Source of the DNA: Clostridium sp. CAG:492
GTDB taxonomy: Bacteria; Bacillota; Clostridia; TANB77; CAG-508
Direction: 5' to 3'
Assembly: GCA_000434335.1 (NCBI GenBank)
Contig: FR878232.1
Coordinates: 5,066-69,065, forward strand
DNA: 64,000 nucleotides
Shown: piece by piece, positions 5,811-43,679 of the stretch
Layout: each line of letters begins with the position of its first letter
Position numbering within the stretch: the first letter of the stretch is position 1
The notes under the pieces: model-generated
The model's input: the letters and a program-made list of their open reading frames with translations, nothing else
Told to the model about the DNA's origin: nothing
The model's database searches: none
Translations under genes and position numbers: made by a program

Positions 5811-6005
5811 TATAATATGTAAATTAAATATAATTGTTTTAGTAAAGAGCTATGTATAATAAATACTTGGCTCTTTTTATTAATGTTTACCGTCAATATT
5901 TTTTGACACATCAATTTCTTTATTATTTTCACTACATTGCTCTTGTTAAAATAACAATAATGTGATACCATAACAACGAAAAACAAAACAATCGGAGGCA
6001 AAAAA

Positions 6006-16384: not shown

Positions 16385-19300
16385 ATGAAAAATAGTAAAT
16401 TAGTTAACAAATTTAAAAAAATATTAATAACTGTTTTATGTATTATTACAGTTTTTTTCTCTATGCCAGTAAAAGCTAAAGCTGATGCAGGAGTATTAGA
16501 AAGCGTAGCATCATTTTTATTATTAGTACCTGATGGAATACAATTATTATTAAATACATTTGTTAGTGATGAAACTGAGGATGTTAAATTTCTTATTAGA
16601 TTACAGGTAATAGATAAGAACGCTAATTTATTTACTAATGATACGGGAAGTTTATATAATATAGAAGTAACTCCGTATGATATTTTTACAGCAGGAACGC
16701 CAACATTATACGGTGAATTGATAGAGAAACGAGACGAAATAAATTATAGTGTTCAAAACGGAGAAATGACGACCGCAGATGCGGTAGCAACTATAAAGGA
16801 AAATGTTGAATCTACTGAACCGGAAGCATTTATGACGAAAAGTTTAGTTAAAATGCCTTTATTAGATGCAAATTTTTTTAAAAAAACAACGAATAGCTCG
16901 TCAAGTTCTGATGAACAGGTGAATTCTGCAGATGTTCTAAGACCGGTAGTTGCAAATGTATATAAAAACTTAAGAAATTTTGTATTAATAATAATGCTTG
17001 CAATATTACTTTACACTGGGATAAGAATAATAGTATCTTCAGCTGTTTCTGAACAGGTTAAATATAAACAATATTTGGTTAATTGGGTTGTTGGAATATG
17101 CCTAATATTTTTAATGCAATATATAATGAGTGCAATTATGAATGTAACAACGATAGTAAATAAAATGTTAATTACTAATACAGATGGAGAGAGTTATAGA
17201 ATTGGATTTGGAACAAAAGATTCCAAAGCAGCTTCTGTTTTTAGAACAATTGCAAAACCTTATAATATGAGTGAAAAAGAGCAAGCACAACGAGATGCAT
17301 ATGAGAAAAGTCTCGAATCGCCACCGACATCTGTTAAACTTAGTGATGATTTCCAGTATAACAATCCCAATCTTGCTACCCAGTATTTATCGGCTTGGTT
17401 GAATAAAAAAGCCGATGATGAAAACAAGAATAATGGTGATGGATGGACAGAATTAGCTAACAGTGATGACGAAAAGATATCGAATTTTGTAAATAGAAAA
17501 ATAGAAATTGCGGATAATGGGGCAATATTCATATTTGATAAAGACAATAAAACAGTTTATGATTATACTGCAGATATCTCGCAAACACCTATTAAGATTA
17601 ACGCTGGAATATACGATGAAAGTGTGAATGGATTTAGAGCTATATATAAGTGTAATATTGCTGAATTTTGCAGGACAATAACAACTTTCTCATCAAAATA
17701 TACACATTTATATAACAATAAAAAGACAATGATTATGACAGATTCAAGTGAAGAAAAGGAAAATGATTATGCTGTAGGAGCTTTTTGGGGATATGCATTT
17801 TTATATATATTGATTACTATAGAAACAGTTGTATTTTTATATAAATATTTAAAAAGAGTAATTTGGTTGGCGTTTTTGACAATGATAGCACCATTAATTG
17901 CAGTTATGTATTCAGTTGACAAAATTGGAGATGGAAAAGCGCAAACTTTTAATATGTGGTTCAAAGAATATTTATTTAATTCATTAATACAACCATTACA
18001 TTTATTGTTATATACTATATTTTTAGGTGCTTCAATGGAATTAATGGCAAGCAATGTAATTTATGCAATAGTTGCATATGCGTTTATGATACCAGCCGAA
18101 AAATTCTTTAAGAAAATGTTCGGATTTGATAAAGCATCAACACCAGGAGGTCTTGGAAGTCCAGCAGCAGGAATGATGGCAATGAGAGGATTAGATAAAT
18201 TAGGTGGATTTGGCCCTCACGGAAAAGGTGCTAAAGGCGGAAAAGATGCAGGCAAAACTAAAATACCATTAGCAAAAGGTAAACTTGGAGGTGGTGGACT
18301 TGCTCCAGCTGGTCCTACTGGAGCAGCTGGAGCAGCCGGAGCAACACCACTTACAGCAGCAAGAACAGGAGCAGGAGGAGCAACAGCCGGAGCAGCAGCT
18401 GGAAGTGCAGCCACTGGAAGTGCTTCTGCAGCCGCAGGTGCAGGAACAGCTGGAGGGTCAAGAAGATTAAGATCTGCAGGAGGAATTTCCTCTGGCACAG
18501 CCGGAAAAGCAAGACGAAGAGGTTCTAGTAGTGTTTTAGGCGGAATGGGTAGAGCATTAGGAAATAGAACAGCAATGAGAATAACTGGAGGTAAAAGTGC
18601 TACCTTAGGTCAAGCCTTTACAACAAGAGCTGGCTTAGCAGGTATGGCAAAAAATGGATTTAATTTTGCAGCAAGACAAATAGGCAGAACTGCTGGCGGT
18701 ATAGGAGGCTCATTAATTGGACTAGGAGTTGGAGCAGTAAGTGGAGCATTAGGAACAGCATTAACTGGAGAAGATAAATTTTCAGATGCTGTTCAAAAGG
18801 GATTATTAGCCGGAAGTGCAGCTGGAGCTAATAGAGGAACTCAATTTACAGATTGGTCAACTGGTGGAGTTGAAGATTTGTATGGTGAAGGTAGAAGATA
18901 TGCAGCAATTGATCCTGAGGATGAAAAACAACTTGAAAGAGCTGCTAGATTAAAAGCAGAAGATTGGAGCCAAGAACATATGTCTGAGGTAAGTACATTA
19001 TCAGCAGATGAATATAAAGAGAAAATGGACTTCGCAGAAGAGGCATTTAAATATACTGATGATATTGAAGATTTAGATCAATTAGAGAGAATGCAAGGAT
19101 ATTCTACTGATGCAAGTGGAAAAATAGATGAAGATAAATTCGCAGAAGCTATAGATTATGAGAAGATAACAAAGAGATTTGGTGATTTCAATGTGGATGC
19201 TAAGAAGAAAGACAATTACACTACATATAGAGCTCGCGAAATTGCTGATGGATTTAAAAATGGTACAATACAATTTAATCAAACAGAAATGACCAAAATA

Positions 19301-19405
19301 AATGGTGCAACAACAGAAGCAGATAAAGAAAAATTCATAAAAGAAATTGCAAAAGAATATGCAACAAATGAAGCAGATATAATAGCAAGATATCAAAATG
19401 GATAA
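16385..19405 (+). CDS. VirB6/TrbL-like polytopic T4SS channel protein with a Gly/Ala-rich low-complexity insert
   Basis: Signal peptide; at least 5 TM helices in the middle (TcpH/Orf15-like). A ~130-aa G/A-rich GC-rich segment follows, then an acidic C-terminal domain. Confidence 0.5.
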   Translation: MKNSKLVNKFKKILITVLCIITVFFSMPVKAKADAGVLESVASFLLLVPDGIQLLLNTFVSDETEDVKFLIRLQVIDKNANLFTNDTGSLYNIEVTPYDIFTAGTPTLYGELIEKRDEINYSVQNGEMTTADAVATIKENVESTEPEAFMTKSLVKMPLLDANFFKKTTNSSSSSDEQVNSADVLRPVVANVYKNLRNFVLIIMLAILLYTGIRIIVSSAVSEQVKYKQYLVNWVVGICLIFLMQYIMSAIMNVTTIVNKMLITNTDGESYRIGFGTKDSKAASVFRTIAKPYNMSEKEQAQRDAYEKSLESPPTSVKLSDDFQYNNPNLATQYLSAWLNKKADDENKNNGDGWTELANSDDEKISNFVNRKIEIADNGAIFIFDKDNKTVYDYTADISQTPIKINAGIYDESVNGFRAIYKCNIAEFCRTITTFSSKYTHLYNNKKTMIMTDSSEEKENDYAVGAFWGYAFLYILITIETVVFLYKYLKRVIWLAFLTMIAPLIAVMYSVDKIGDGKAQTFNMWFKEYLFNSLIQPLHLLLYTIFLGASMELMASNVIYAIVAYAFMIPAEKFFKKMFGFDKASTPGGLGSPAAGMMAMRGLDKLGGFGPHGKGAKGGKDAGKTKIPLAKGKLGGGGLAPAGPTGAAGAAGATPLTAARTGAGGATAGAAAGSAATGSASAAAGAGTAGGSRRLRSAGGISSGTAGKARRRGSSSVLGGMGRALGNRTAMRITGGKSATLGQAFTTRAGLAGMAKNGFNFAARQIGRTAGGIGGSLIGLGVGAVSGALGTALTGEDKFSDAVQKGLLAGSAAGANRGTQFTDWSTGGVEDLYGEGRRYAAIDPEDEKQLERAARLKAEDWSQEHMSEVSTLSADEYKEKMDFAEEAFKYTDDIEDLDQLERMQGYSTDASGKIDEDKFAEAIDYEKITKRFGDFNVDAKKKDNYTTYRAREIADGFKNGTIQFNQTEMTKINGATTEADKEKFIKEIAKEYATNEADIIARYQNG

Positions 19406-32766: not shown

Positions 32767-32804
32767 AAGTCTTGTCGTAAGACAAATGCCAGTTTATAAC
32801 AAAT

Positions 32805-32892
32805 GCAGATGTGGCGGAACTGGCAGACGCACAGGACTTAAAATCCTGCGGTTGAATAAACCGTGCCGGTTCGATTCCGGCCATCTGCACCA
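32805..32892 (+). tRNA. tRNA-Leu (anticodon TAA), long variable arm, encoded CCA
   Basis: Cloverleaf: GCAGATG acceptor; anticodon loop CUUAAAA; TPsiC arm GGTTCGATTCC; ends GCACCA. Confidence 0.85.
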
Positions 32893-32893
32893 A
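32882..32893 (+). repeat. attL: 12-bp direct repeat CATCTGCACCAA at the tRNA-Leu 3' end
   Basis: Identical 12-mer at 41278-41289, downstream of the integrase. Confidence 0.6.
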
Positions 32894-33126
32894 GAATACA
32901 GATTAGAAATCAAATTTCTAACCTGTATTTTTTTGCGTGATTTCAAGAAAAAAGCTACATTTTATAGGTGCTTTGGAACTGTTCCAAAAAGTTCTAAAAA
33001 ATGCCCTATAATGTATATAAAATGTCGGGATTGCATGTCGGGAAAATTTTTAATCTTTGATAATTCTATCAAATACTCCCTTTATTTATTATTAGTCCTA
33101 TTCTGAGTATCAGAAAGGATATAGAA

Positions 33127-33501
33127 ATGGAATTTATACCATACAAAGCTCATGAATGTTTTGAACATTTATATTATCAAATACCAATGGAGTTATTCCT
33201 TAACAAAAATTATAAAGATAATTTAAATTCAGATAGCAAAATTCTTTATGGCTTTTTACTAAATAGACTAACATTATCAGCAAAAAATAATTGGGCTGAT
33301 GAAGAAGGAAATGTTTTTCTAATATTTACTAGAAAAGAAGTACAAGAATTACTGGGTTTATCTGATAAAACAGTTACAAAAGCTTTTAAGCAATTAAAGG
33401 ATTGTAAATTAACATATGAGAAAAAGCAAGGCGCAAATAAACCTAATTTGATTTATGTTGGAAAGATAGAACATGATAAAAATCTTATACAACATTCGTA
33501 A
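33127..33501 (+). CDS. RepA_N-family replication initiator (N-terminal wHTH domain), possibly truncated or frameshifted
   Basis: LYGFLLNRLTLSAKNNWADEEGNVFLIFTRKEVQELLGLSDKTVTKAFKQLKD is the RepA_N signature. Only 124 aa; the overlapping ORF 33473-33694 may be its displaced C-terminus. Confidence 0.5.
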   Translation: MEFIPYKAHECFEHLYYQIPMELFLNKNYKDNLNSDSKILYGFLLNRLTLSAKNNWADEEGNVFLIFTRKEVQELLGLSDKTVTKAFKQLKDCKLTYEKKQGANKPNLIYVGKIEHDKNLIQHS

Positions 33502-33699
33502 AAATTACGAGTCCAAAATCGTAAAATCTACGGCTCACGACACGGAAAATTTACGACCAAATTATAACAATAATAATTATAACAATAAAGTAAAAGGTAA
33601 AAATAGTTATTCAAATTATGAGCAAAGACATTATGATGATTTAAACTTCTTATATGCAAATAATAATTTTGAAAATAATGATGAAACGGAGTGATTTTA

Positions 33700-34062
33700 A
33701 TGAATTTAGAATATATAAAATATGGAGATTATAATTTACCTAATATATCAGTTCCTGAAGAAAGTAATGAAACAAAAGGAAAACATTTTGGTAAATATGG
33801 ATTATTAAGATTAACATTTTTGAAAGAGAATAGACAAGTTTTATACCAAGAATTATTACTTAATAATAAATTACACGAGCATTTAGTAAAAACAGATGAA
33901 GAAACAAATATAAAAGTAAATAACTTAATAAAAGAACTTGCAGAGCAAGAAAATGTTGACGAGAATTTAAAAGCAACTAACCAATTAGAATGGGTTCAAA
34001 AAATGAACAACATTAAAAATCGTGCAGAAGAAATAGTATTTAATGAGCTAATTTATGTATAA
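33700..34062 (+). CDS. TnpV-like transposon-encoded protein
   Basis: GKYGLLRLTFLKENRQVLYQELLLNNKLHEHL...LEWVQKMNNIKNRAEEIV resembles the Tn4451 TnpV family. ATG at 33700 follows the RBS ACGGAG. Confidence 0.5.
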   Translation: MNLEYIKYGDYNLPNISVPEESNETKGKHFGKYGLLRLTFLKENRQVLYQELLLNNKLHEHLVKTDEETNIKVNNLIKELAEQENVDENLKATNQLEWVQKMNNIKNRAEEIVFNELIYV

Positions 34063-34204: not shown

Positions 34205-34528
34205 ATGAGAAAAAGAAATATAAAAAAACAAATATGGATAAATTTTCAAGAAGATAATTTACTAAAAAAGAAATCAAAAGAAAGTGGATTAAGTGAATCT
34301 GAATTTATAAGAAGTTTAGTAAGAGGTTATAGAATAAAAGCACAACCTACTGAAGAAATAAAATCTTTTCAAAGAGAGTTATATGGAATAGCGAATAATA
34401 TAAATCAAATTGCAAGAATTGCAAATTCAAGATTAAGTGTTTCACACGATGATTATTCATATATTTCAAAAGAGCTTTCTGATTTTATTTTGAGATTTGA
34501 AAAAGAACTTTATTCAAGACAAAAATAA
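34205..34528 (+). CDS. MobC-family relaxosome accessory protein (RHH)
   Basis: SESEFIRSLVRG (RHH) and YGIANNINQIARIAN (MobC motif). Immediately upstream of the relaxase. Confidence 0.6.
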   Translation: MRKRNIKKQIWINFQEDNLLKKKSKESGLSESEFIRSLVRGYRIKAQPTEEIKSFQRELYGIANNINQIARIANSRLSVSHDDYSYISKELSDFILRFEKELYSRQK

Positions 34529-34542
34529 GGAGGCTTGCTGCT

Positions 34543-35841
34543 ATGGCTATTATAAAATATAAAGTTATACAAAAGAATTTAGAAGCTGTAATAAACTATG
34601 CCAAAAATGGAGATAAAATAGAAAAAGGGATACTTGTATGTGGCATAAATTGTTTGCCAGATACAGCATATTTCCAAATGATGCTCACAAAAAAGACATT
34701 TCATAAAGAAGATGGAAGGCTAGGTTATCATATAATTCAATCATTTAATGGAAAAGAGGTATCTCCTGAAAAATGTAATAGCATAGGTGTTGAATTTGCC
34801 AAAAGTCTATTTGGAGATAAATATCAGGTTTTAGTATGTACTCATATAGATAAAGAAAATGTCCATAATCATATCGTGCTAAATTCAGTTTCTTTTGTAG
34901 ATGGGCTTAAATACCACAATTCTAATGCAGAACTTGCTTTTTTAAGAGAAACAAGTGATGATTTATGTAGAAAGTATGGTTTATATGTTATTGAAAGTGA
35001 AAAAGCTGATAAAGAAAATGCTATTGCTAGAAATAGAACAAATAATTATAATCGCAATAGTGGCAAAATGGAGCTAATAAAAAACGATATTGATGAGGCA
35101 ATAAAGAATGCTAAAAAATATAAAGACTTTATTGATAACTTGGCTTATAAAGGCTATTATGTTAAAAAAAACAATAATGTAATATCTGTATCAACTCCAT
35201 ATTTTAATAGAAATATAAGACTTTCAAGAGCCTTTGGAGAAGATTATACCTTTGAAAATATTAAAAATAGAATTTATTATAGAGATTATCAATTTAAAGA
35301 AGATAAAGTATATAAAATTAGAATATATGAAGGTGTTAAAATTAATTCTGAATTATTAAAAATATCACCATTTTATAGATTATATGTGCATTTCTTATAT
35401 ATTTTAGGAAAATTACCACCTAAAATACGTTATGAAGAAAGAACACCAGAATATTACAGAGAAATAAATAAATTTAATAAGCTATGTGATGAGCTAAATA
35501 TGATTAGTGATTATAGCTTAACATCAATTACAGATATTCAAAATTTAAGGATTAAATATCTTGAAGAAATTTCACCTTTAAAAGCTCAAAGAGAAAAATA
35601 TAGAAAATTATATAATATAACCCAAAATGATGCCGATAAAACGATTCTCAAAGCAAAAATTAATCATTTAACTGAAGATATTGATAGATTGAATTCTAAA
35701 ATACAAACTTGCAGAAGAATTATTACTAAATTTGAAAAAGGAGAAAAAGAAGATTGGCTAATTCAGAAAAGATTTGAAAATAATAAGGAAATAAGTGAAA
35801 AAGAGATTTTGAAAAATAAAGATAATAGAAGAATAAGATAG
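34543..35841 (+). CDS. relaxase/mobilization nuclease (MobA/VirD2-type His-triad relaxase)
   Basis: HIDKENVHNHIVLN (HxDxxHxHxH motif III) with an N-terminal catalytic Tyr region. 432 aa. Confidence 0.65.
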   Translation: MAIIKYKVIQKNLEAVINYAKNGDKIEKGILVCGINCLPDTAYFQMMLTKKTFHKEDGRLGYHIIQSFNGKEVSPEKCNSIGVEFAKSLFGDKYQVLVCTHIDKENVHNHIVLNSVSFVDGLKYHNSNAELAFLRETSDDLCRKYGLYVIESEKADKENAIARNRTNNYNRNSGKMELIKNDIDEAIKNAKKYKDFIDNLAYKGYYVKKNNNVISVSTPYFNRNIRLSRAFGEDYTFENIKNRIYYRDYQFKEDKVYKIRIYEGVKINSELLKISPFYRLYVHFLYILGKLPPKIRYEERTPEYYREINKFNKLCDELNMISDYSLTSITDIQNLRIKYLEEISPLKAQREKYRKLYNITQNDADKTILKAKINHLTEDIDRLNSKIQTCRRIITKFEKGEKEDWLIQKRFENNKEISEKEILKNKDNRRIR

Positions 35842-35961
35842 CGATTAAATTTGCAATATTATGTAAAATATGGTATAATAAAAATTAGATACCGAATGGT
35901 ATTATAAAAAATAAATGGGCTATTTCAAGCCAAGTCCTATATGGGCGGAAAGGTTTTTATT

Positions 35962-36378
35962 ATGAAGATTAACAACAACTCTGCACTCTACACCAACTGT
36001 GTCTTCCTGGGTGGCACTTGTGCCAATTCTACCTGGAGAACCGATCTCATCAGCAAACTCAAGGACTCTGTTCCTTACTTCGACCCTCAGGTTCCTGACT
36101 GGACTCCTGAAGATGCCGAGCGTGAGGATGCATGCAAGCCCGTTGCTGGTATCAATGTTTTCGTCATCACTGGCGATGCACTCGGTACCTACTCTGGTTT
36201 CGAAATCTGTGAGGAAGCTCACCGTGCTCCTGAAAAGTTGGTTTTCGCCACTGTTGGTGAATTGCCTGAAAATCAGGTCAAGGGCATTGGAAAGATTAAG
36301 AAAGCTCTGATTGCAAAGGGATGCCGTGTTTGTGAGACTCTTGACGAGATCGCTGAAATTATCAACCAGGCATATTAA
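35962..36378 (+). CDS. high-GC (~50%) foreign gene; nucleoside 2-deoxyribosyltransferase-like (Rossmann/SLOG-like) protein, function unknown
   Basis: GC3-rich codons (CTG, GGC, ACC) in a 27% GC background. VFLGGTCA...GDALGTYSGFEICEEA resembles the NDT-like fold. ATG at 35962 follows GGAAAGG. Confidence 0.4.
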   Translation: MKINNNSALYTNCVFLGGTCANSTWRTDLISKLKDSVPYFDPQVPDWTPEDAEREDACKPVAGINVFVITGDALGTYSGFEICEEAHRAPEKLVFATVGELPENQVKGIGKIKKALIAKGCRVCETLDEIAEIINQAY

Positions 36379-36431
36379 TCCCAGTAAAAACAAGGTATTT
36401 GGTAGCTAGAACTCTTACAGCCTTATACCTC

Positions 36432-36470
36432 CACCGAATATTCAAGTATTCGGTGGTTTCTTTTTATTTT
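36432..36470 (+). terminator. bidirectional rho-independent terminator between convergent genes
   Basis: ACCGAATATTCAAGTATTCGGT hairpin followed by a T-run. Confidence 0.55.
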
Positions 36471-36784
36471 AGATTATTTTGATCAATCCAATGCAAAAAT
36501 TCCATATTTCCACCTTTAATTTCATAATACGAAATTTCAGCTATTTCATAATCATGTATTTTCTTGATTTCATTTTCTATTTCAGTAAATAAGCTTTCTT
36601 TTGTTCTAAATTCTAATTTATATTCATCGCATTCTTCTAATTCATTATTCCACCAATATTTGGAATGAACTTTAGAAAGTTGACATCCAGCTACTAATCT
36701 TTTTTCTAGTAATGTATCTACAATTTTATTTGCTATTTCTTCCTTATCACAAAATGTTGTTACAATTATATATTCATTTAGCAT
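36464..36784 (-). CDS. cutA: CutA1 divalent-cation tolerance protein family (PII-like fold)
   Basis: IIVTTF...LVAGC...SKYWW...HDYEIAEI...GGNMEFLHWIDQ matches conserved CutA positions. Confidence 0.55.
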   Translation of the reverse strand: MLNEYIIVTTFCDKEEIANKIVDTLLEKRLVAGCQLSKVHSKYWWNNELEECDEYKLEFRTKESLFTEIENEIKKIHDYEIAEISYYEIKGGNMEFLHWIDQNNLK

Positions 36785-36934: not shown

Positions 36935-37168
36935 TTAAACCTCTTTATTTAAAAATCTTTTTTCTGCTTCAATTACCTTAGCATTATTTTTTATTAATGG
37001 TTCTTCTATACCATCCTCATTTATGCAATTAATGTATTTAAAATCTCCACCAATTCTTGTATACTGATTTCCACCATCTATTGAACAAGCACCACACTTG
37101 CAACTTACACAATCGTGTAAATTTTTTGATTCAATTATATCATTACATTTTAAACATCTAATTTTCAT
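36935..37168 (-). CDS. small Cys-rich (zinc-ribbon-like) protein
   Basis: CLKCN...CVSCKCGAC...CIN Cys clusters. Overlaps the upstream nuclease gene stop. Confidence 0.35.
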   Translation of the reverse strand: MKIRCLKCNDIIESKNLHDCVSCKCGACSIDGGNQYTRIGGDFKYINCINEDGIEEPLIKNNAKVIEAEKRFLNKEV

Positions 37169-38195
37169 TATCTAATCCTTCTAACCTTTTCTTTATTTCT
37201 TCAGGAGATGGTAATAAATCTTTCATTTGCTCTGGTAAAGAATCATGAATCTTATATGTTGCAACTCCAATAGGTTTGTCACTATTACTCAAAGCATATT
37301 CTACAACAGTCCTATTTTTTTCTTTACAAATTATAATACCAATTGATGGATTTTCACTTTCCATTTTAACCTGTTTATCTAATACTGTTAAATAAAATTG
37401 TAATTGACCAACATATTCTGGTTTGAATTCGCCTATTTTTAATTCTATTGCAACTAAACTCTTTAAACTTCTATGATATAGAAGTAAATCAATATAAAAA
37501 TCATTTCCATCAACATTTAGATGATATTGATTACCCATAAATGCAAAATTTCCACCCATTTCTCCAAGAAAATCCTTTATATTGTCAACTAAAGCTCTTT
37601 CTAATTCTCTTTCAGAATGTTGTTCAGATAGTTCCATTATATCAAATATATACTCATCTTTTACTGCAAGTTTAGCTTGATTTACATACTTCTCAGGCAA
37701 AGTTTCATCGAAATTTGTCTGATTGATTAAATACTTTTCATAAGATTTATTTTCAATATGGTTAATTAGTACATCTTTCGACCAACCATATTTTTTTGTC
37801 ATCTTTATATAAAATTCTCTTTCCAGATTATCTTTGCATTTTTCTGTTATAACAATATTTTTAGTCCAACTAATTTCTCGCACGAGTGGTGCGAGATTTT
37901 CTATATCTTTATATGTAATATAAAAATTTCTCATTCTCCATAAATTGCTTGCAGAAAATCCTTTTACTTCTGGGAATTCTTTTTGAATTTCTTTTGCTAA
38001 AACTTCAACAATTGATTTTCCCCAGCCCTTTTCTTGCTGTTGGTTATATATTTCTTCTCCAATTCCCCAATACAAGTTAATTAGCGTTGTATTTACAGCT
38101 TTCATAGCTTCATATTGACTTTCTCTTATTTTATTTTTAATTTCAACAATAAAATTATTGTATTCTGCATTTATTAGATTGTTTTCCATTTTCAA
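37158..38195 (-). CDS. YhcG/DUF1016-family PD-(D/E)XK nuclease
   Basis: N-terminal ...TLINLYWGIGEEI...GWGKSIVEVLAKEIQKEFPEVKGFSASNLWRMRNFY is the YhcG signature. C-terminal D...ELK PD-(D/E)XK core (IDLLLYHRSLKSLVAIELKIGEF). Confidence 0.65.
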   Translation of the reverse strand: MKMENNLINAEYNNFIVEIKNKIRESQYEAMKAVNTTLINLYWGIGEEIYNQQQEKGWGKSIVEVLAKEIQKEFPEVKGFSASNLWRMRNFYITYKDIENLAPLVREISWTKNIVITEKCKDNLEREFYIKMTKKYGWSKDVLINHIENKSYEKYLINQTNFDETLPEKYVNQAKLAVKDEYIFDIMELSEQHSERELERALVDNIKDFLGEMGGNFAFMGNQYHLNVDGNDFYIDLLLYHRSLKSLVAIELKIGEFKPEYVGQLQFYLTVLDKQVKMESENPSIGIIICKEKNRTVVEYALSNSDKPIGVATYKIHDSLPEQMKDLLPSPEEIKKRLEGLDNEN

Positions 38196-38213: not shown

Positions 38214-39161
38214 CTATTCAATATAATTATTTTTCTTTTGTCTGCTTTTGTTTATATTTTCTCTATTTCTACATTGTATAGTGTCATATTCAGACTTAAT
38301 ATTTTCTGCAATAAATGGTTTACCACAATGTTTGCATAGTTTTACTTCTGTTCTTCCAGAAGTTTCATTTAGAAGTAAGATAGTTTCTATTATTTCACTT
38401 AAAGACATAAAATTCCATTTGAATTTTATTTGCCCATCTTCAGCACTATATGAAATATTAGGCTTTTTTAAGCTATCTCCAGTGATACTTTCTTGATATA
38501 CTTGTCTTATATCTTCTGATACATCATCATAAAGGTAAGCACAAATTAAAAGCTTTTTATTGTATATAATTGTTGCAAAGTTAATAATTTCTGCAATAGT
38601 TTCAGCATAATTTTTTGAAAAAATTACATCATTAAGTCTATCTCCTTCAATTTGTTCAAAATCATCATTAAGACCAGTATTTCTGTGATAATCGTTTGCT
38701 TTCATTGTATTCGACCAGTCAATTTTTGAATCTTTCCAAAAATATTTCTTTTCAAATTCCAATGCACTTATAGAAGTATTATATCCTAAATTTACAGGGA
38801 TATCTCCATTATCCATAAATTCATAATTTTCTGGCAAATATCTAAAATTACCAAGTAATCCATAATTGCTTACAAATTCAAACACCAAATTTTGGAATTT
38901 TTCCATTTTACTTTGTGCTTCAATTGTTACTTCCTTATTGCCAAGTTTAAACATTTCATTACCAACTGATTCTTTTCCTATTACTAATAAATCTTTTAAT
39001 ATTTGATTTTTTACTTCAAATGGATCATAGGTACTTGGCTTTGCATTTTTATCTGGGAATATGTAATATTTATCGTCTTTTTTTTCAATGATATACTTAC
39101 TGTACTTACACCATTTTGCAGTAAATTTAATCTTTTCTTCTTTAATCATTTCACACCTCAT
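38214..39161 (-). CDS. hypothetical protein with a C-terminal zinc ribbon (CKHCG...CRNRE), operonic with the YhcG nuclease
   Basis: 315 aa. Likely start at the internal MIKEEK (39149), which has an AGGTG RBS. No recognised domain. Confidence 0.4.
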   Translation of the reverse strand: MRCEMIKEEKIKFTAKWCKYSKYIIEKKDDKYYIFPDKNAKPSTYDPFEVKNQILKDLLVIGKESVGNEMFKLGNKEVTIEAQSKMEKFQNLVFEFVSNYGLLGNFRYLPENYEFMDNGDIPVNLGYNTSISALEFEKKYFWKDSKIDWSNTMKANDYHRNTGLNDDFEQIEGDRLNDVIFSKNYAETIAEIINFATIIYNKKLLICAYLYDDVSEDIRQVYQESITGDSLKKPNISYSAEDGQIKFKWNFMSLSEIIETILLLNETSGRTEVKLCKHCGKPFIAENIKSEYDTIQCRNRENINKSRQKKNNYIE

Positions 39162-40192: not shown

Positions 40193-41167
40193 ATGCAGAC
40201 AATAAAAGCGTGTAGTGCATATAATTTTATGTTTAAGCCTATTCAGAATGTAACAAGAACAGACATAGAAAGATTTTTACAGGCAGAAAAGCACAAATCT
40301 AATTCTTCTATTTCAAAAGAGTATGCTATTATCAAAAATGCATTTGCACTTGCTTATAAAAAACATTTAATTGATAGAGATATTGCATTAGATTTTAATA
40401 TTGATCCAGTAGAAAAACCTAAAAGTGAAAAACAAGATAAAGATGTTGTTGCTTTTACAATAAGAGAAGAATATACACTAATTCAGTATATAAATACACA
40501 TTATTCAAAATACAATAATATGCTTTTGTTAGCACTTTATACGGGAATGAGAATTGGAGAAGTTCTAGCATTAACAATTAACGATTTTGATTTTGATGAA
40601 GGTTATGGAACAATTAGTGTAAATAAAACTTTAACTAAAAATAAAAGTGGAAAAATAATAATTGGAAATGTTACTAAAACCAAAAATGGAAAAAGAAATT
40701 TGCATTTAGATAAAGTTTCAAAAGAAGTTGCACTAAAAGCAATTGCGGAAATGACTCAAAATAAAAGAAACCTAATATTCCTTCGCAGAGATGGAAAGCT
40801 ATATTATGATAGTCAAATAAATAGTGCATTTAAAAGAATTTGTAAAAATGCTGGGATAAAAGTAATTATGACTAAACATAGAAAAGTGTCTAAATCAAAA
40901 GGAGTTCACTATGTAAATGAACAGACCAGTGAGGCACATACACATATGTTAAGACACACATTTGCAACTAGATGTATTGAAGCAGGAATGGATTTAGCAA
41001 CACTGCAAAAAGTTTTAGGGCATGCTAATATTCAAACAACTATAAATATTTATGGAGATATATTTGATTATCATCAGAAAAATCAAATGTATAAATATAC
41101 AGAATATATGGACAAAATGAATGAAAAATATGAAAAACTATTTGAAAATAGTACGATACAAGAATAG
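40193..41167 (+). CDS. tyrosine site-specific recombinase/integrase
   Basis: Catalytic-domain motifs [11 protein letters not shown] (box I R), HMLRHTFAT (box II) and [15 protein letters not shown] (Tyr). The reading frame is open from 40028 with no ATG before 40193. Confidence 0.75.
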
Positions 41168-43172: not shown

Positions 43173-43679
43173 TTATTCCTTATCAAGTTGTTGATCTAGT
43201 TCTATTTCTTTGCAGCCAAAATAAATGAAAAATTCCGTGATTATTACTGAAATTATGGTTCCAAAGATGGAAACGATTCGGTCAAAAATGTTGGTGATAT
43301 GTTCTACGTATTCCTTTATTTGCATATCATCTTCATTTTCAGGCCTCGTTATTTCGTATGTCATCCCCTTGCCGGGGACATCATCAGTCATAACGTCCGT
43401 GCTTCCATAGAAAACATTCACCTCATCATCAGAAACATATGTTTGGTATACAATCTGTCCCTTATAGATGATACGGATTTCTCCATCAGTATTCACAGTG
43501 CATGTCATATCTTTGTCGATGGTTTTTAAATTTACATCATTAAGCTCTAAAAGTGCGGCTATTTCCAATTTGGAATTTGGCGTTGTAGTCCATACATAGT
43601 GGACAACAAAAATACCAAAAACCAATACTGCAATAAGCAGAATTGTTTTGAAAATATTCAATTTGGTAGTTTTCCGCAT
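43173..43679 (-). CDS. hypothetical membrane protein (N- and C-terminal TMs) with locally raised GC (~37%)
   Basis: RBS AAGGAGGA precedes the ATG. Composition differs from the flanks. Confidence 0.45.
   Translation of the reverse strand: MRKTTKLNIFKTILLIAVLVFGIFVVHYVWTTTPNSKLEIAALLELNDVNLKTIDKDMTCTVNTDGEIRIIYKGQIVYQTYVSDDEVNVFYGSTDVMTDDVPGKGMTYEITRPENEDDMQIKEYVEHITNIFDRIVSIFGTIISVIITEFFIYFGCKEIELDQQLDKE

Follow-up and report, generated by a model that had tools for sequence, protein, structure and literature searches.

A GC-rich PF15891 gene in a horizontally exchanged expression cassette of AT-rich gut Clostridia

The 64,000-nucleotide stretch of Clostridium sp. CAG:492 analysed here (contig FR878232.1; hereafter "the window") carries, at positions 35851-36466, a self-contained, horizontally exchanged single-gene expression cassette. 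Its open reading frame (ORF; 35962..36378, + strand) encodes a PF15891 (Nuc_deoxyri_tr2) protein of 138 aa and stands out in composition, with a GC content of 0.475 overall and 0.489 at third codon positions (GC3), in a window of GC 0.275. An earlier reading, made from the sequence alone, had described a ~50% GC gene in ~27% GC surroundings that was recently acquired from a distant donor. The compositional anomaly and the horizontal movement are both borne out below; the recent import from a distant donor is not.

Anatomy and composition of the cassette

The promoter lies at 35851..35879 (+), with a -35 element TTGCAA (35851-35856), a 17-nt spacer and an extended -10 element TGgTATAAT (35871-35879). 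In a consensus scan it scores 10/12 including the TG, and the same layout is kept at the loci of relatives. Transcription would start near 35886, just before a 5'-proximal hairpin (35888..35903, GAUACC-GAAU-GGUAUU) that is present in the minimum-free-energy (MFE) fold. Two further hairpins follow in the leader: hairpin A (35918..35931, GGGC...GCC), variable in stem length and loop, and hairpin B (35934..35946, GUCC-UAUAU-GGGC), which immediately abuts the Shine-Dalgarno sequence GGAAAGG (35947..35953), 8 nt before the ATG. The Shine-Dalgarno forms part of an invariant GGGCGGAAAGG; it is unchanged in leader alignments A2 and A3, single-stranded in the MFE fold, and unique in the window. An in-frame ATG at 35941 would give a product of 145 aa, but the family alignment sets the start at MKIN, whose M1 is invariant. 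The ATGs lying within the leader, in frame and out of frame, account for database gene calls of 145-179 aa. A conserved upstream ORF in the leader was considered and rejected, as the upstream ATGs change frame between alleles.

At the other end, a predicted intrinsic terminator occupies 36431..36466 (+), with an 11-bp stem CCACCGAATAT/GTATTCGGTGG that includes one G-T pair, a TCAA loop of 4 nt and a T-run. The gene beyond it, cutA (CutA1; 36464..36784, -; Pfam E=7e-26), is host-like in composition (GC 0.24, GC3 0.12) and is convergent with the ORF, as the sequence-only reading had proposed. The same reading had the two genes share a terminator, which was not upheld: the stem-loop (36431-36456) and its T-run score on the + strand only, and the terminator moves with the ORF in the allele swaps described below, so that it belongs to the cassette and is not common to cutA. 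The arrangement is also not that of an integron-type cassette, given its own promoter and a nearest recombinase 3.8 kb off, beyond other genes; the trailers of the relatives are ordinary terminators that share no sequence, although attC-model searches were not run.

In 300-nt sliding windows, GC peaks at 0.497 at 36000-36299, inside the ORF, and ranges from 0.20 to 0.34 throughout the 6 kb on either side. Among the 38 non-overlapping window ORFs of at least 100 aa, the PF15891 gene ranks first in GC3 (0.49, against a median of 0.145 and 0.36 for the next real gene). At four-fold degenerate sites it carries T.57, C.29, A.11 and G.03, compared with A.53, T.40, C.03 and G.04 in the genes of the window. 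A-ending codons, together with TTA and ATA, are avoided, and C-, T- and G-ending codons are used instead, in keeping with the earlier claim of a codon usage unlike that of other genes in the window. GC is 0.33 in the leader, 0.33 again in the first 8 codons, 0.48 in the rest of the ORF and 0.385 in the trailer; the GC-richness is restricted to the coding region and arises from synonymous codon choice.

The spurious ORFs in other frames that had been attributed to this composition are present, at 35920-36393 (-; 157 aa) and 35999-36310 (+; 103 aa). The longer of these was considered as an overlapping antisense gene and rejected, since 12 of 25 alleles have breaks in its frame; where it stands open at full length, this is because the sense ORF avoids TTA, CTA and TCA codons.

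Three further patches of the window were noted for their composition. The first, at 18001-19200 (GC 0.36-0.45), lies inside ORF 16385-19405, a 1006-aa frame in a conjugative-element region that has no Pfam match. As the patch keeps A/T-rich four-fold sites, its cause is amino-acid composition and not codon choice. The second is a 168-aa predicted membrane protein gene at 43173-43679 (-), with a moderately raised GC3 (0.36, against the median of 0.145) and its own Shine-Dalgarno and terminator, which may be a milder compositional island. The third, a 106-aa ORF at 32786-33106 (+) with a GC3 of 0.36, is spurious and overlaps a tRNA-Leu(UAA) gene (32805-32892).

The leader as a conserved RNA motif

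Across the relatives, which are cited here by the L-numbers of their loci or contigs, the alignment of 14 distinct leaders follows the pattern AAUGGGC-hairpin A-CAAGUCC-loop-GGGCGGAAAGG-N6-8-AUG. Hairpin A has five pairs changed on both sides, with 94% of alignment cells paired compared with 25-42% in slid controls, and none of 500 shuffles attained its score. Hairpin B is invariant across the 14 aligned leaders; a second leader type has GCCC-UUCG-GGGC or GUCC-GAAA-GGAC in its place, a covarying change, and in the L015 leader its stem is lengthened to 7 bp. The 5'-proximal hairpin carries a GAAA tetraloop in most relatives (UACC-GAAA-GGUA or GGCC-GAAA-GGC). Rfam 15 returned no match to the leader even at E<=10, and a tRNA was the sole Rfam match at gathering score in the whole window. 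The leader is a compact, covariation-supported RNA motif, new to Rfam.

A covariance model of the leader, searched against the window and 1.35 Mb of related DNA, found one match per locus, always before a gene of the clade, and none elsewhere. A wider pattern scan of metagenomes (AAGTCC-N3-10-GGGCGGAAAGG) returned at least 120 matches, most of them chance occurrences in GC-rich contigs, with the low-GC ones being informative. In two such low-GC contigs the same promoter-leader precedes unrelated genes: in L127 (reverse strand, 1752-2216) a 154-aa protein (MKAYQKKNYTMKAEK...) encoded in a strong GC island (0.48, against 0.23-0.34), and in L068 (531-965) a 144-aa protein (MRNLRFKKGAVVKF...; GC 0.38, against 0.25). 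Neither protein has a Pfam, PADLOC or PHROG match. It appears that unrelated cargo genes, themselves GC islands (L127), have taken up this leader.

In a separate case, L010 (~5840-5900), the cassette follows immediately on the 3' end of a tRNA and lacks hairpin A, retaining only GGGCGGAAAGG and the ORF; an insertion or recombination event at the tRNA may have truncated it.

A conserved, structured and covarying leader that has no Rfam family, and that stands once per locus before a nucleoside-enzyme gene throughout the 1.35 Mb searched, could be a riboswitch, in which translation of the enzyme is controlled by a small aptamer that binds a nucleobase, a nucleoside or some related metabolite. 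Several features make this improbable: the conserved bases sit in stem B and the Shine-Dalgarno rather than in loops or junctions, the loops vary freely, hairpins with GNRA or UUCG tetraloops substitute for hairpin B, and the predicted fold leaves the Shine-Dalgarno single-stranded, with no anti-Shine-Dalgarno partner seen. The unrelated genes of L127 and L068 also carry the same leader. Because the loops vary, tetraloop swaps are tolerated and the conserved bases are those of stem B and the unpaired Shine-Dalgarno, several features point to a leader that stabilises the mRNA and promotes its translation rather than binding a ligand.

In this respect the cassette resembles the Gram-positive 5' stabiliser leaders (the ermC/aprE type, the cryIIIA STAB-SD and the hbs mRNA): one hairpin lies only a few nt from its inferred 5' end, another abuts the Shine-Dalgarno (GAAAGG, which pairs with the 16S rRNA 3' end), and there is a strong 3' hairpin. 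Unlike those stabilisers, the cassette leader forms one defined, conserved sequence family (AAUGGGC-hairpin-CAAGUCC-loop-GGGCGGAAAGG), which moves together with particular cargo genes.

The encoded protein and the exchange of its cassette

The protein matches PF15891 at 40.4 bits, above the curated cut-off of 30 (E=4e-10, residues 14-87), and all of its homologues match the same family. PF15891 is its only Pfam family at E<=0.01, with no sequence match to PF05014, and no chain in the PDB was matched by sequence at E<=10. An AlphaFold2 model built with 31 sequences (mean pLDDT, the model's own per-residue confidence measure, 94.1) has a beta-alpha order running E14-18/H25-30/.../H127-137. The best solved match in Foldseek is 4mcj, a putative nucleoside deoxyribosyltransferase (E=1e-4, TM-score 0.65), and further matches include YtoQ (8of6), bacterial and animal TIR domains and MilB. 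Among viral models (BFVD), the matches were to proteins of phages and giant viruses that resemble nucleoside 2-deoxyribosyltransferases (NDTs). The loose resemblance to such enzymes that had been read from the sequence is thus confirmed, by a family score above cut-off and by the fold matches to 4mcj and YtoQ. It had been allowed that homology searches might identify a well-known housekeeping or resistance gene; the gene is neither, and NCBIfam, PADLOC and PHROGs gave no match and hence no assignment to a defence or phage family.

The ratio of non-synonymous to synonymous substitution (dN/dS) is 0.04-0.14 among the closer alleles and 0.18-0.26 against the most distant, values low enough to indicate a functional, constrained protein. 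Its invariant residues include F15, L16, G17, G18, T19, C20, S23, T24, W25 and R26, followed by P42, W47, E55, D56, Y77, S78, G79 and E81, the last of these present in 25/25 alleles. E81 opens helix 3 within GTYSGFE, and may correspond to the catalytic Glu of NDT and DNPH1, which lies in the motif D-x-G-[ST]-x-x-E. As it is drawn from motif resemblance rather than superposition, this correspondence counts as a weakness of the enzymatic assignment. The protein is, on its model, an NDT/TIR-like flavodoxin-fold member of PF15891 with an invariant Glu81, and would most likely act through that residue on the N-glycosidic bond of a (deoxy)nucleoside or nucleotide, either breaking the bond or transferring the base.

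Other members of PF15891, such as BDI_0649 of Parabacteroides distasonis (the 4mcj protein) and the viral NDT-like proteins, share with it the hidden Markov model match, the flavodoxin-like fold, a small single-domain build and a glycine-rich first loop (FLGG...). The wider family has ~1,100 representatives at 50% clustering, whereas the cassette clade comprises a handful of 50%-identity clusters (three at E<=1e-30) among 1.84 billion representatives. The clade is narrow, and differs from the rest of the family, whose genes are at most 42% identical, host-like in composition and without the leader; by sequence, it is a new narrow clade of a known family. PF05014 enzymes (NDT and DNPH1), YtoQ, the CMP N-glycosidase MilB and the TIR NADases belong to the same fold class, but with TM-scores of only 0.45-0.6 and no sequence-level match. 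No demonstrated activity or function of any PF15891 member was found in the literature.

Among GenBank phages, jumbo and mega-phages often carry distant PF15891 relatives (34-47% identity), examples being Pseudomonas phages Psa21 and D6, Prevotella Lak megaphages, and Erwinia and Serratia jumbo phages, which hints at a role of the wider family in nucleotide metabolism. A putative role in nucleoside salvage or detoxification in small-genome gut bacteria would fit the presence of the clade in small-genome gut Clostridia and Saccharibacteria and, distantly, of the family in jumbo phages.

Segments of the cassette and its neighbours occur in differing allele combinations. Compared with L223-L232, the window is 96.6% identical across the promoter-leader, 66% across the ORF (71% in protein) and 44% across the trailer and terminator, before identity returns to 90-93% in cutA; its trailer matches that of L117 instead. 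The left exchange junction of this comparison falls at the invariant GGGCGGAAAGG. Against L234 and L237 the combination is reversed, with 98% protein identity in the ORF and only 74% identity in cutA. In the trio of the window, L233 and L234, 8-9% of sites vary in the leader and ORF, 51% in the 3' part of the relaxase gene upstream, and 28% in cutA. A large number of metagenome contigs end immediately before the promoter, and some carry an IS30-like transposase at that point. Exchange of the cassette, or of the ORF with its terminator, among diverged backbones is well supported by these sequence comparisons.

The convergent pair of cassette and cutA itself recurs with reshuffled alleles in L223-L232, L234-L237 and L117. 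In L223 and L224, genes for an HD-domain protein and an acetyltransferase lie beyond cutA, where the window has neither, and in L225-L228 an IS30-like transposase takes the place of the relaxase upstream.

In the window, the cassette is cargo, carried between the relaxase gene and cutA of a probable integrative mobilizable island beside tRNA-Leu. The host DNA is that of a low-GC, gut Clostridia-type chromosome (Mur ligase, M16 peptidases, Lgt). On the left, the tRNA-Leu(UAA) gene (32805..32892, +; ARAGORN and Rfam) is the probable integration target, and is followed by genes, assigned by Pfam, for a RepA_N-type protein (33127-33501, +) and TnpV (33691-34062, +), and by an upstream mobilization module of a NikA/MobC-like protein (34205-34528, +) and a MobA/VirD2-type relaxase (34543-35841, +). 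After the cassette come, on the opposite strand, cutA, a DUF7695 gene and a YhcG/DUF1016 nuclease, then a gene with no assignment and a tyrosine recombinase of the phage-integrase family (40193..41167, +; Pfam), the probable island integrase. This gene content agrees with the mobile setting claimed from the sequence, and comprises an integrase, a relaxase and an accessory mobilization protein, with no full conjugation apparatus in the island, as is expected of an integrative mobilizable element (IME). The likeness to Firmicutes IMEs, in gene content and tRNA-Leu adjacency, extends over 32.8-41.2 kb. Unlike typical IMEs, the island ends yielded no att repeats, with no convincing repeat of at least 14 nt, which is a point against this placement.

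Several neighbouring features are recorded in their own right. The PD-(D/E)xK nuclease (YhcG/DUF1016; 37158-38195, -) matches the PADLOC candidate defence system PDC-S02 (E=4e-148), and the adjoining gene (38214-39161), of 315 aa, has no Pfam or PADLOC match. A conjugative element at 4224-26900 encodes a type IV secretion system coupling protein, an N6/N4 DNA methylase, a ResIII/DEAD helicase and a TraG/VirB4-like ATPase, together with a 1695-aa ORF, so that, with the island, the window holds two mobile elements. Between 44169 and 61637 lie very large surface-protein genes, one of 935 aa with thioester (TED), SpaA and DUF11 domains and others of 3400 aa and 1307 aa, which look like adhesin or pilin-type proteins.

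Origin and maintenance of the GC-rich composition

The compositional anomaly extends well beyond the window. The relatives sampled at >=46% identity comprise 27 distinct alleles, and 27/27 are GC-rich in flanks of 0.24-0.46 GC, with no allele in a GC-rich context. Gene GC is 0.42-0.59 in uncultured gut Clostridia and in Clostridium sp. CAG:571, and flanking GC 0.24-0.34, mostly 15-31 points apart; in gut and rumen Saccharibacteria the corresponding values are 0.51-0.61 and 0.40-0.46, an excess of 5-20 points. Overall the excess is 4-31 points, with only three of the 27 alleles falling outside 15-31, whereas PF15891 genes at or below 42% identity are host-like in GC (differences of -7 to +11 points). 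The neighbours vary by locus and include murE/pyrophosphatase, LytTR, NUDIX/LuxS, LysR, DUF218, an IS30-like transposase and relaxase/cutA. The GC-richness is a long-standing, clade-wide and coding-specific property in AT-rich hosts.

No GC-rich donor of the clade was found among 185,579 species genomes (GTDB), IMG/VR, PLSDB or GenBank phages. The last three held no clade members: all the relatives found there had 29-48% identity, and many came from jumbo and mega-phages. The plasmids and phages of PLSDB and GenBank held no near-identical DNA.

One carrier chromosome holds a separate compositional island, which lies upstream of the clade gene at a distance of 4 kb (L001 3490-4029, the same as L008 1445-1984). 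It is a GNAT (Acetyltransf_3) gene with a GC3 of 0.55, against 0.14; a promoter, a 5' hairpin and a GC-rich terminator of its own accompany it, and its leader is a different one.

Host-adapted translational selection, in which a gene takes up the codons that its host prefers, was considered and rejected. The enolase, rpsF, Ldh, PPase and ClpB genes of the carrier hosts rely on codons ending in A or T: the L011 host has an enolase gene with a GC3 of 0.087 and no C or G at four-fold sites, rpsF adjoining another allele has a GC3 of 0.19, and Ldh, PPase and ClpB near a third are host-like. As these highly expressed genes are host-like, the cassette is using the rarest codons of its hosts. Most allele pairs are saturated at synonymous sites (synonymous divergence, dS, above 1), and synonymous sites vary at essentially every conserved residue, so that the clade does not stem from one recent sweep of a single sequence. 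The same variation led to the rejection of a nucleotide element hidden within the ORF.

The direction of recent change was read from the closest trio (the window, L233 and L234), whose third positions show 12 GC>AT and 12 AT>GC changes. Host bias would give ~7:1, from which the observed counts depart with P ~4e-6 for an equilibrium GC3 (GC3*) of 0.12, 3e-5 for 0.145 and 4e-4 for 0.19. The equilibrium GC3 implied by the trio is 0.51 in the ORF, against 0.12 for third positions of the flanking relaxase gene. AT>GC changes per AT site number 12/68 in the ORF and 1/84 in the co-inherited leader (P=3e-4). As a linked control, cutA keeps a GC3 of 0.11-0.15 at a dS of 0.25-0.6, beside ORF alleles with a GC3 of 0.48-0.53. 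The GC-richness is neither a host expression bias nor decaying in the recent branches that can be polarised.

These results bear most directly on the view of a recent import from a GC-richer distant donor, not yet ameliorated, in which the relatives would be independent imports from an unsampled GC-rich pool. Such an import would account for an atypical composition on a mobile island, and the cassette is far more alike between elements than their backbones are, so that its exchange has been recent. Some lineages do have an excess of GC>AT changes (12:4 in L013, 13:2 in L014), the same hosts hold other single-gene GC islands such as the L001 GNAT gene, and the heterogeneous codon patterns of the alleles could mean different donors. 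The likeness to the islands of the amelioration model, and to "moron" insertions, is also considerable, extending to atypical GC, an own promoter and terminator, a mobile island and variable neighbours. Unlike such islands, however, the cassette keeps its composition across synonymously saturated alleles, its recent substitutions are compositionally balanced rather than in GC>AT excess, and no donor was identified, with no GC-rich carrier in any of the genomes, phages or plasmids searched and all 27 sampled alleles lying in flanks of 0.24-0.46 GC. In addition, alleles whose proteins are only 66-72% identical have inherited, along with the ORF, an AT-rich promoter and leader of Firmicutes type, which places their divergence in hosts of this kind. 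We consider a recent distant import rather unlikely.

The frequent recombination between elements raises the matter of GC-biased gene conversion, whereby biased mismatch repair would fix AT>GC changes in the exchanged tract. The mosaic exchange of ORF and terminator is clear, and the AT>GC excess in the ORF relative to the leader is as this process would predict. Its bias should be strand-symmetric, however, and many alleles are strongly pyrimidine-ending at four-fold sites (C>>G, T>>A), with C.29 and G.03, and T.57 and A.11, in the window, and C.56 and G.13 in L016. The enrichment also halts at the ORF edges, although leader and trailer, at 0.33 and 0.385, are exchanged too, and the first 8 codons remain AT-rich. 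This strand asymmetry and ORF-limited enrichment argue against biased gene conversion, which we regard as very improbable, and for a cause at the level of the transcript or its translation.

One such cause would be codon-based control, in which A-ending codons, read by U34 tRNAs, are deliberately avoided, either to throttle a dosage-sensitive N-glycosidase or to keep the gene translatable when the main tRNAs are limiting, hypomodified or cleaved. In every allele, A makes up 0.06-0.32 of four-fold sites, compared with 0.5-0.63 in the hosts. For Lys, Glu and Gln, 33-89% of codons are G-ending (64% in the window allele), compared with 10-18% in AT-rich hosts; among conserved Asn, Asp and Tyr residues (NAY codons), C-ending exceeds T-ending at 7 of 9 positions; and the codons used are the hosts' rarest. 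The heterogeneous patterns of the alleles count against deliberate avoidance, and the consensus promoter, stabilising leader and AT-rich initiation region would favour high, not throttled, output, so that we think this explanation quite improbable.

Universal selection for mRNA secondary structure was likewise considered and found no support: only 6 of 13 alleles fold more stably than their synonymous-codon shuffles (z -2.4 to -4.1), and the window allele does not.

We are left, at about an even chance, with a composition that is actively maintained rather than freshly imported, and infer that it would be kept by selection at the level of mRNA or translation. A number of results weigh against this. 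The allele group of the window is no more stable than its shuffles (z ~0). GC3 spans 0.31-0.76 among alleles, with L011 rich in G-ending codons and the window having nearly none, and such heterogeneity weakens any account based on a single optimum. The operon-embedded copy in L207, in a 37% GC contig, is nearly host-like, at 4 points above its surroundings. The deeper trios are mixed, with L013 and L014 drifting towards AT and L117 moving towards GC, and homoplasy is a concern there. The counts of the closest trio are small and presuppose that its alleles diverged within AT-rich hosts; exchange with alleles of higher GC could also pass for AT>GC changes.

If the composition is maintained, a specific rationale in transcript stability and expression can be offered, but tentatively, and at rather less than an even chance. 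In B. subtilis, RNase Y attacks AU-rich, weakly structured regions (PMC11780869), and ribosomes and 5' structure block RNase J1 (PMC5737220). A GC-rich, A-poor body framed by 5' and 3' hairpins might allow the cassette mRNA to escape the AU-directed decay machinery of Firmicutes, and a long-lived mRNA would yield much protein. The consensus promoter, 5'-proximal hairpin, hairpin-flanked Shine-Dalgarno, AT-rich initiation region and strong 3' hairpin would together suit a transcript built for durability and strong translation.

A broader possibility, which we hold to be doubtful, is that the GC-rich ORF, poor in A-ending codons, is a selected trait of a portable, "hardened" expression module for mobile genes, to which the consensus promoter, the new family of three-hairpin leaders, the AT-rich initiation region and the strong terminator would also belong. 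Such a module would give high, host-independent expression in extremely AT-rich bacteria, whether by escape from AU-directed decay, by use of tRNAs that the host barely uses, or by both.

Atypical GC content is a standard cue for recent horizontal transfer, and the cassette clade keeps its GC excess while its recent substitutions are balanced; no account of a protein-coding clade that is persistently GC-rich within AT-rich bacteria was found in the literature. If selection does maintain this composition, the dating of transfers by composition can be badly wrong for some mobile cargo, and were the hardened-module reading to prove true, base composition would here report function and not ancestry, breaking the rule that equates atypical GC with recent transfer. 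Maintained composition would also mean that nature already offers a design for strong expression, independent of the host, in Firmicutes of very low GC, one that could serve the engineering of gut Clostridia. It would further mean that the N-glycosidase-like enzyme, which gut Clostridia and Saccharibacteria with small genomes share, matters enough to merit such tuning.

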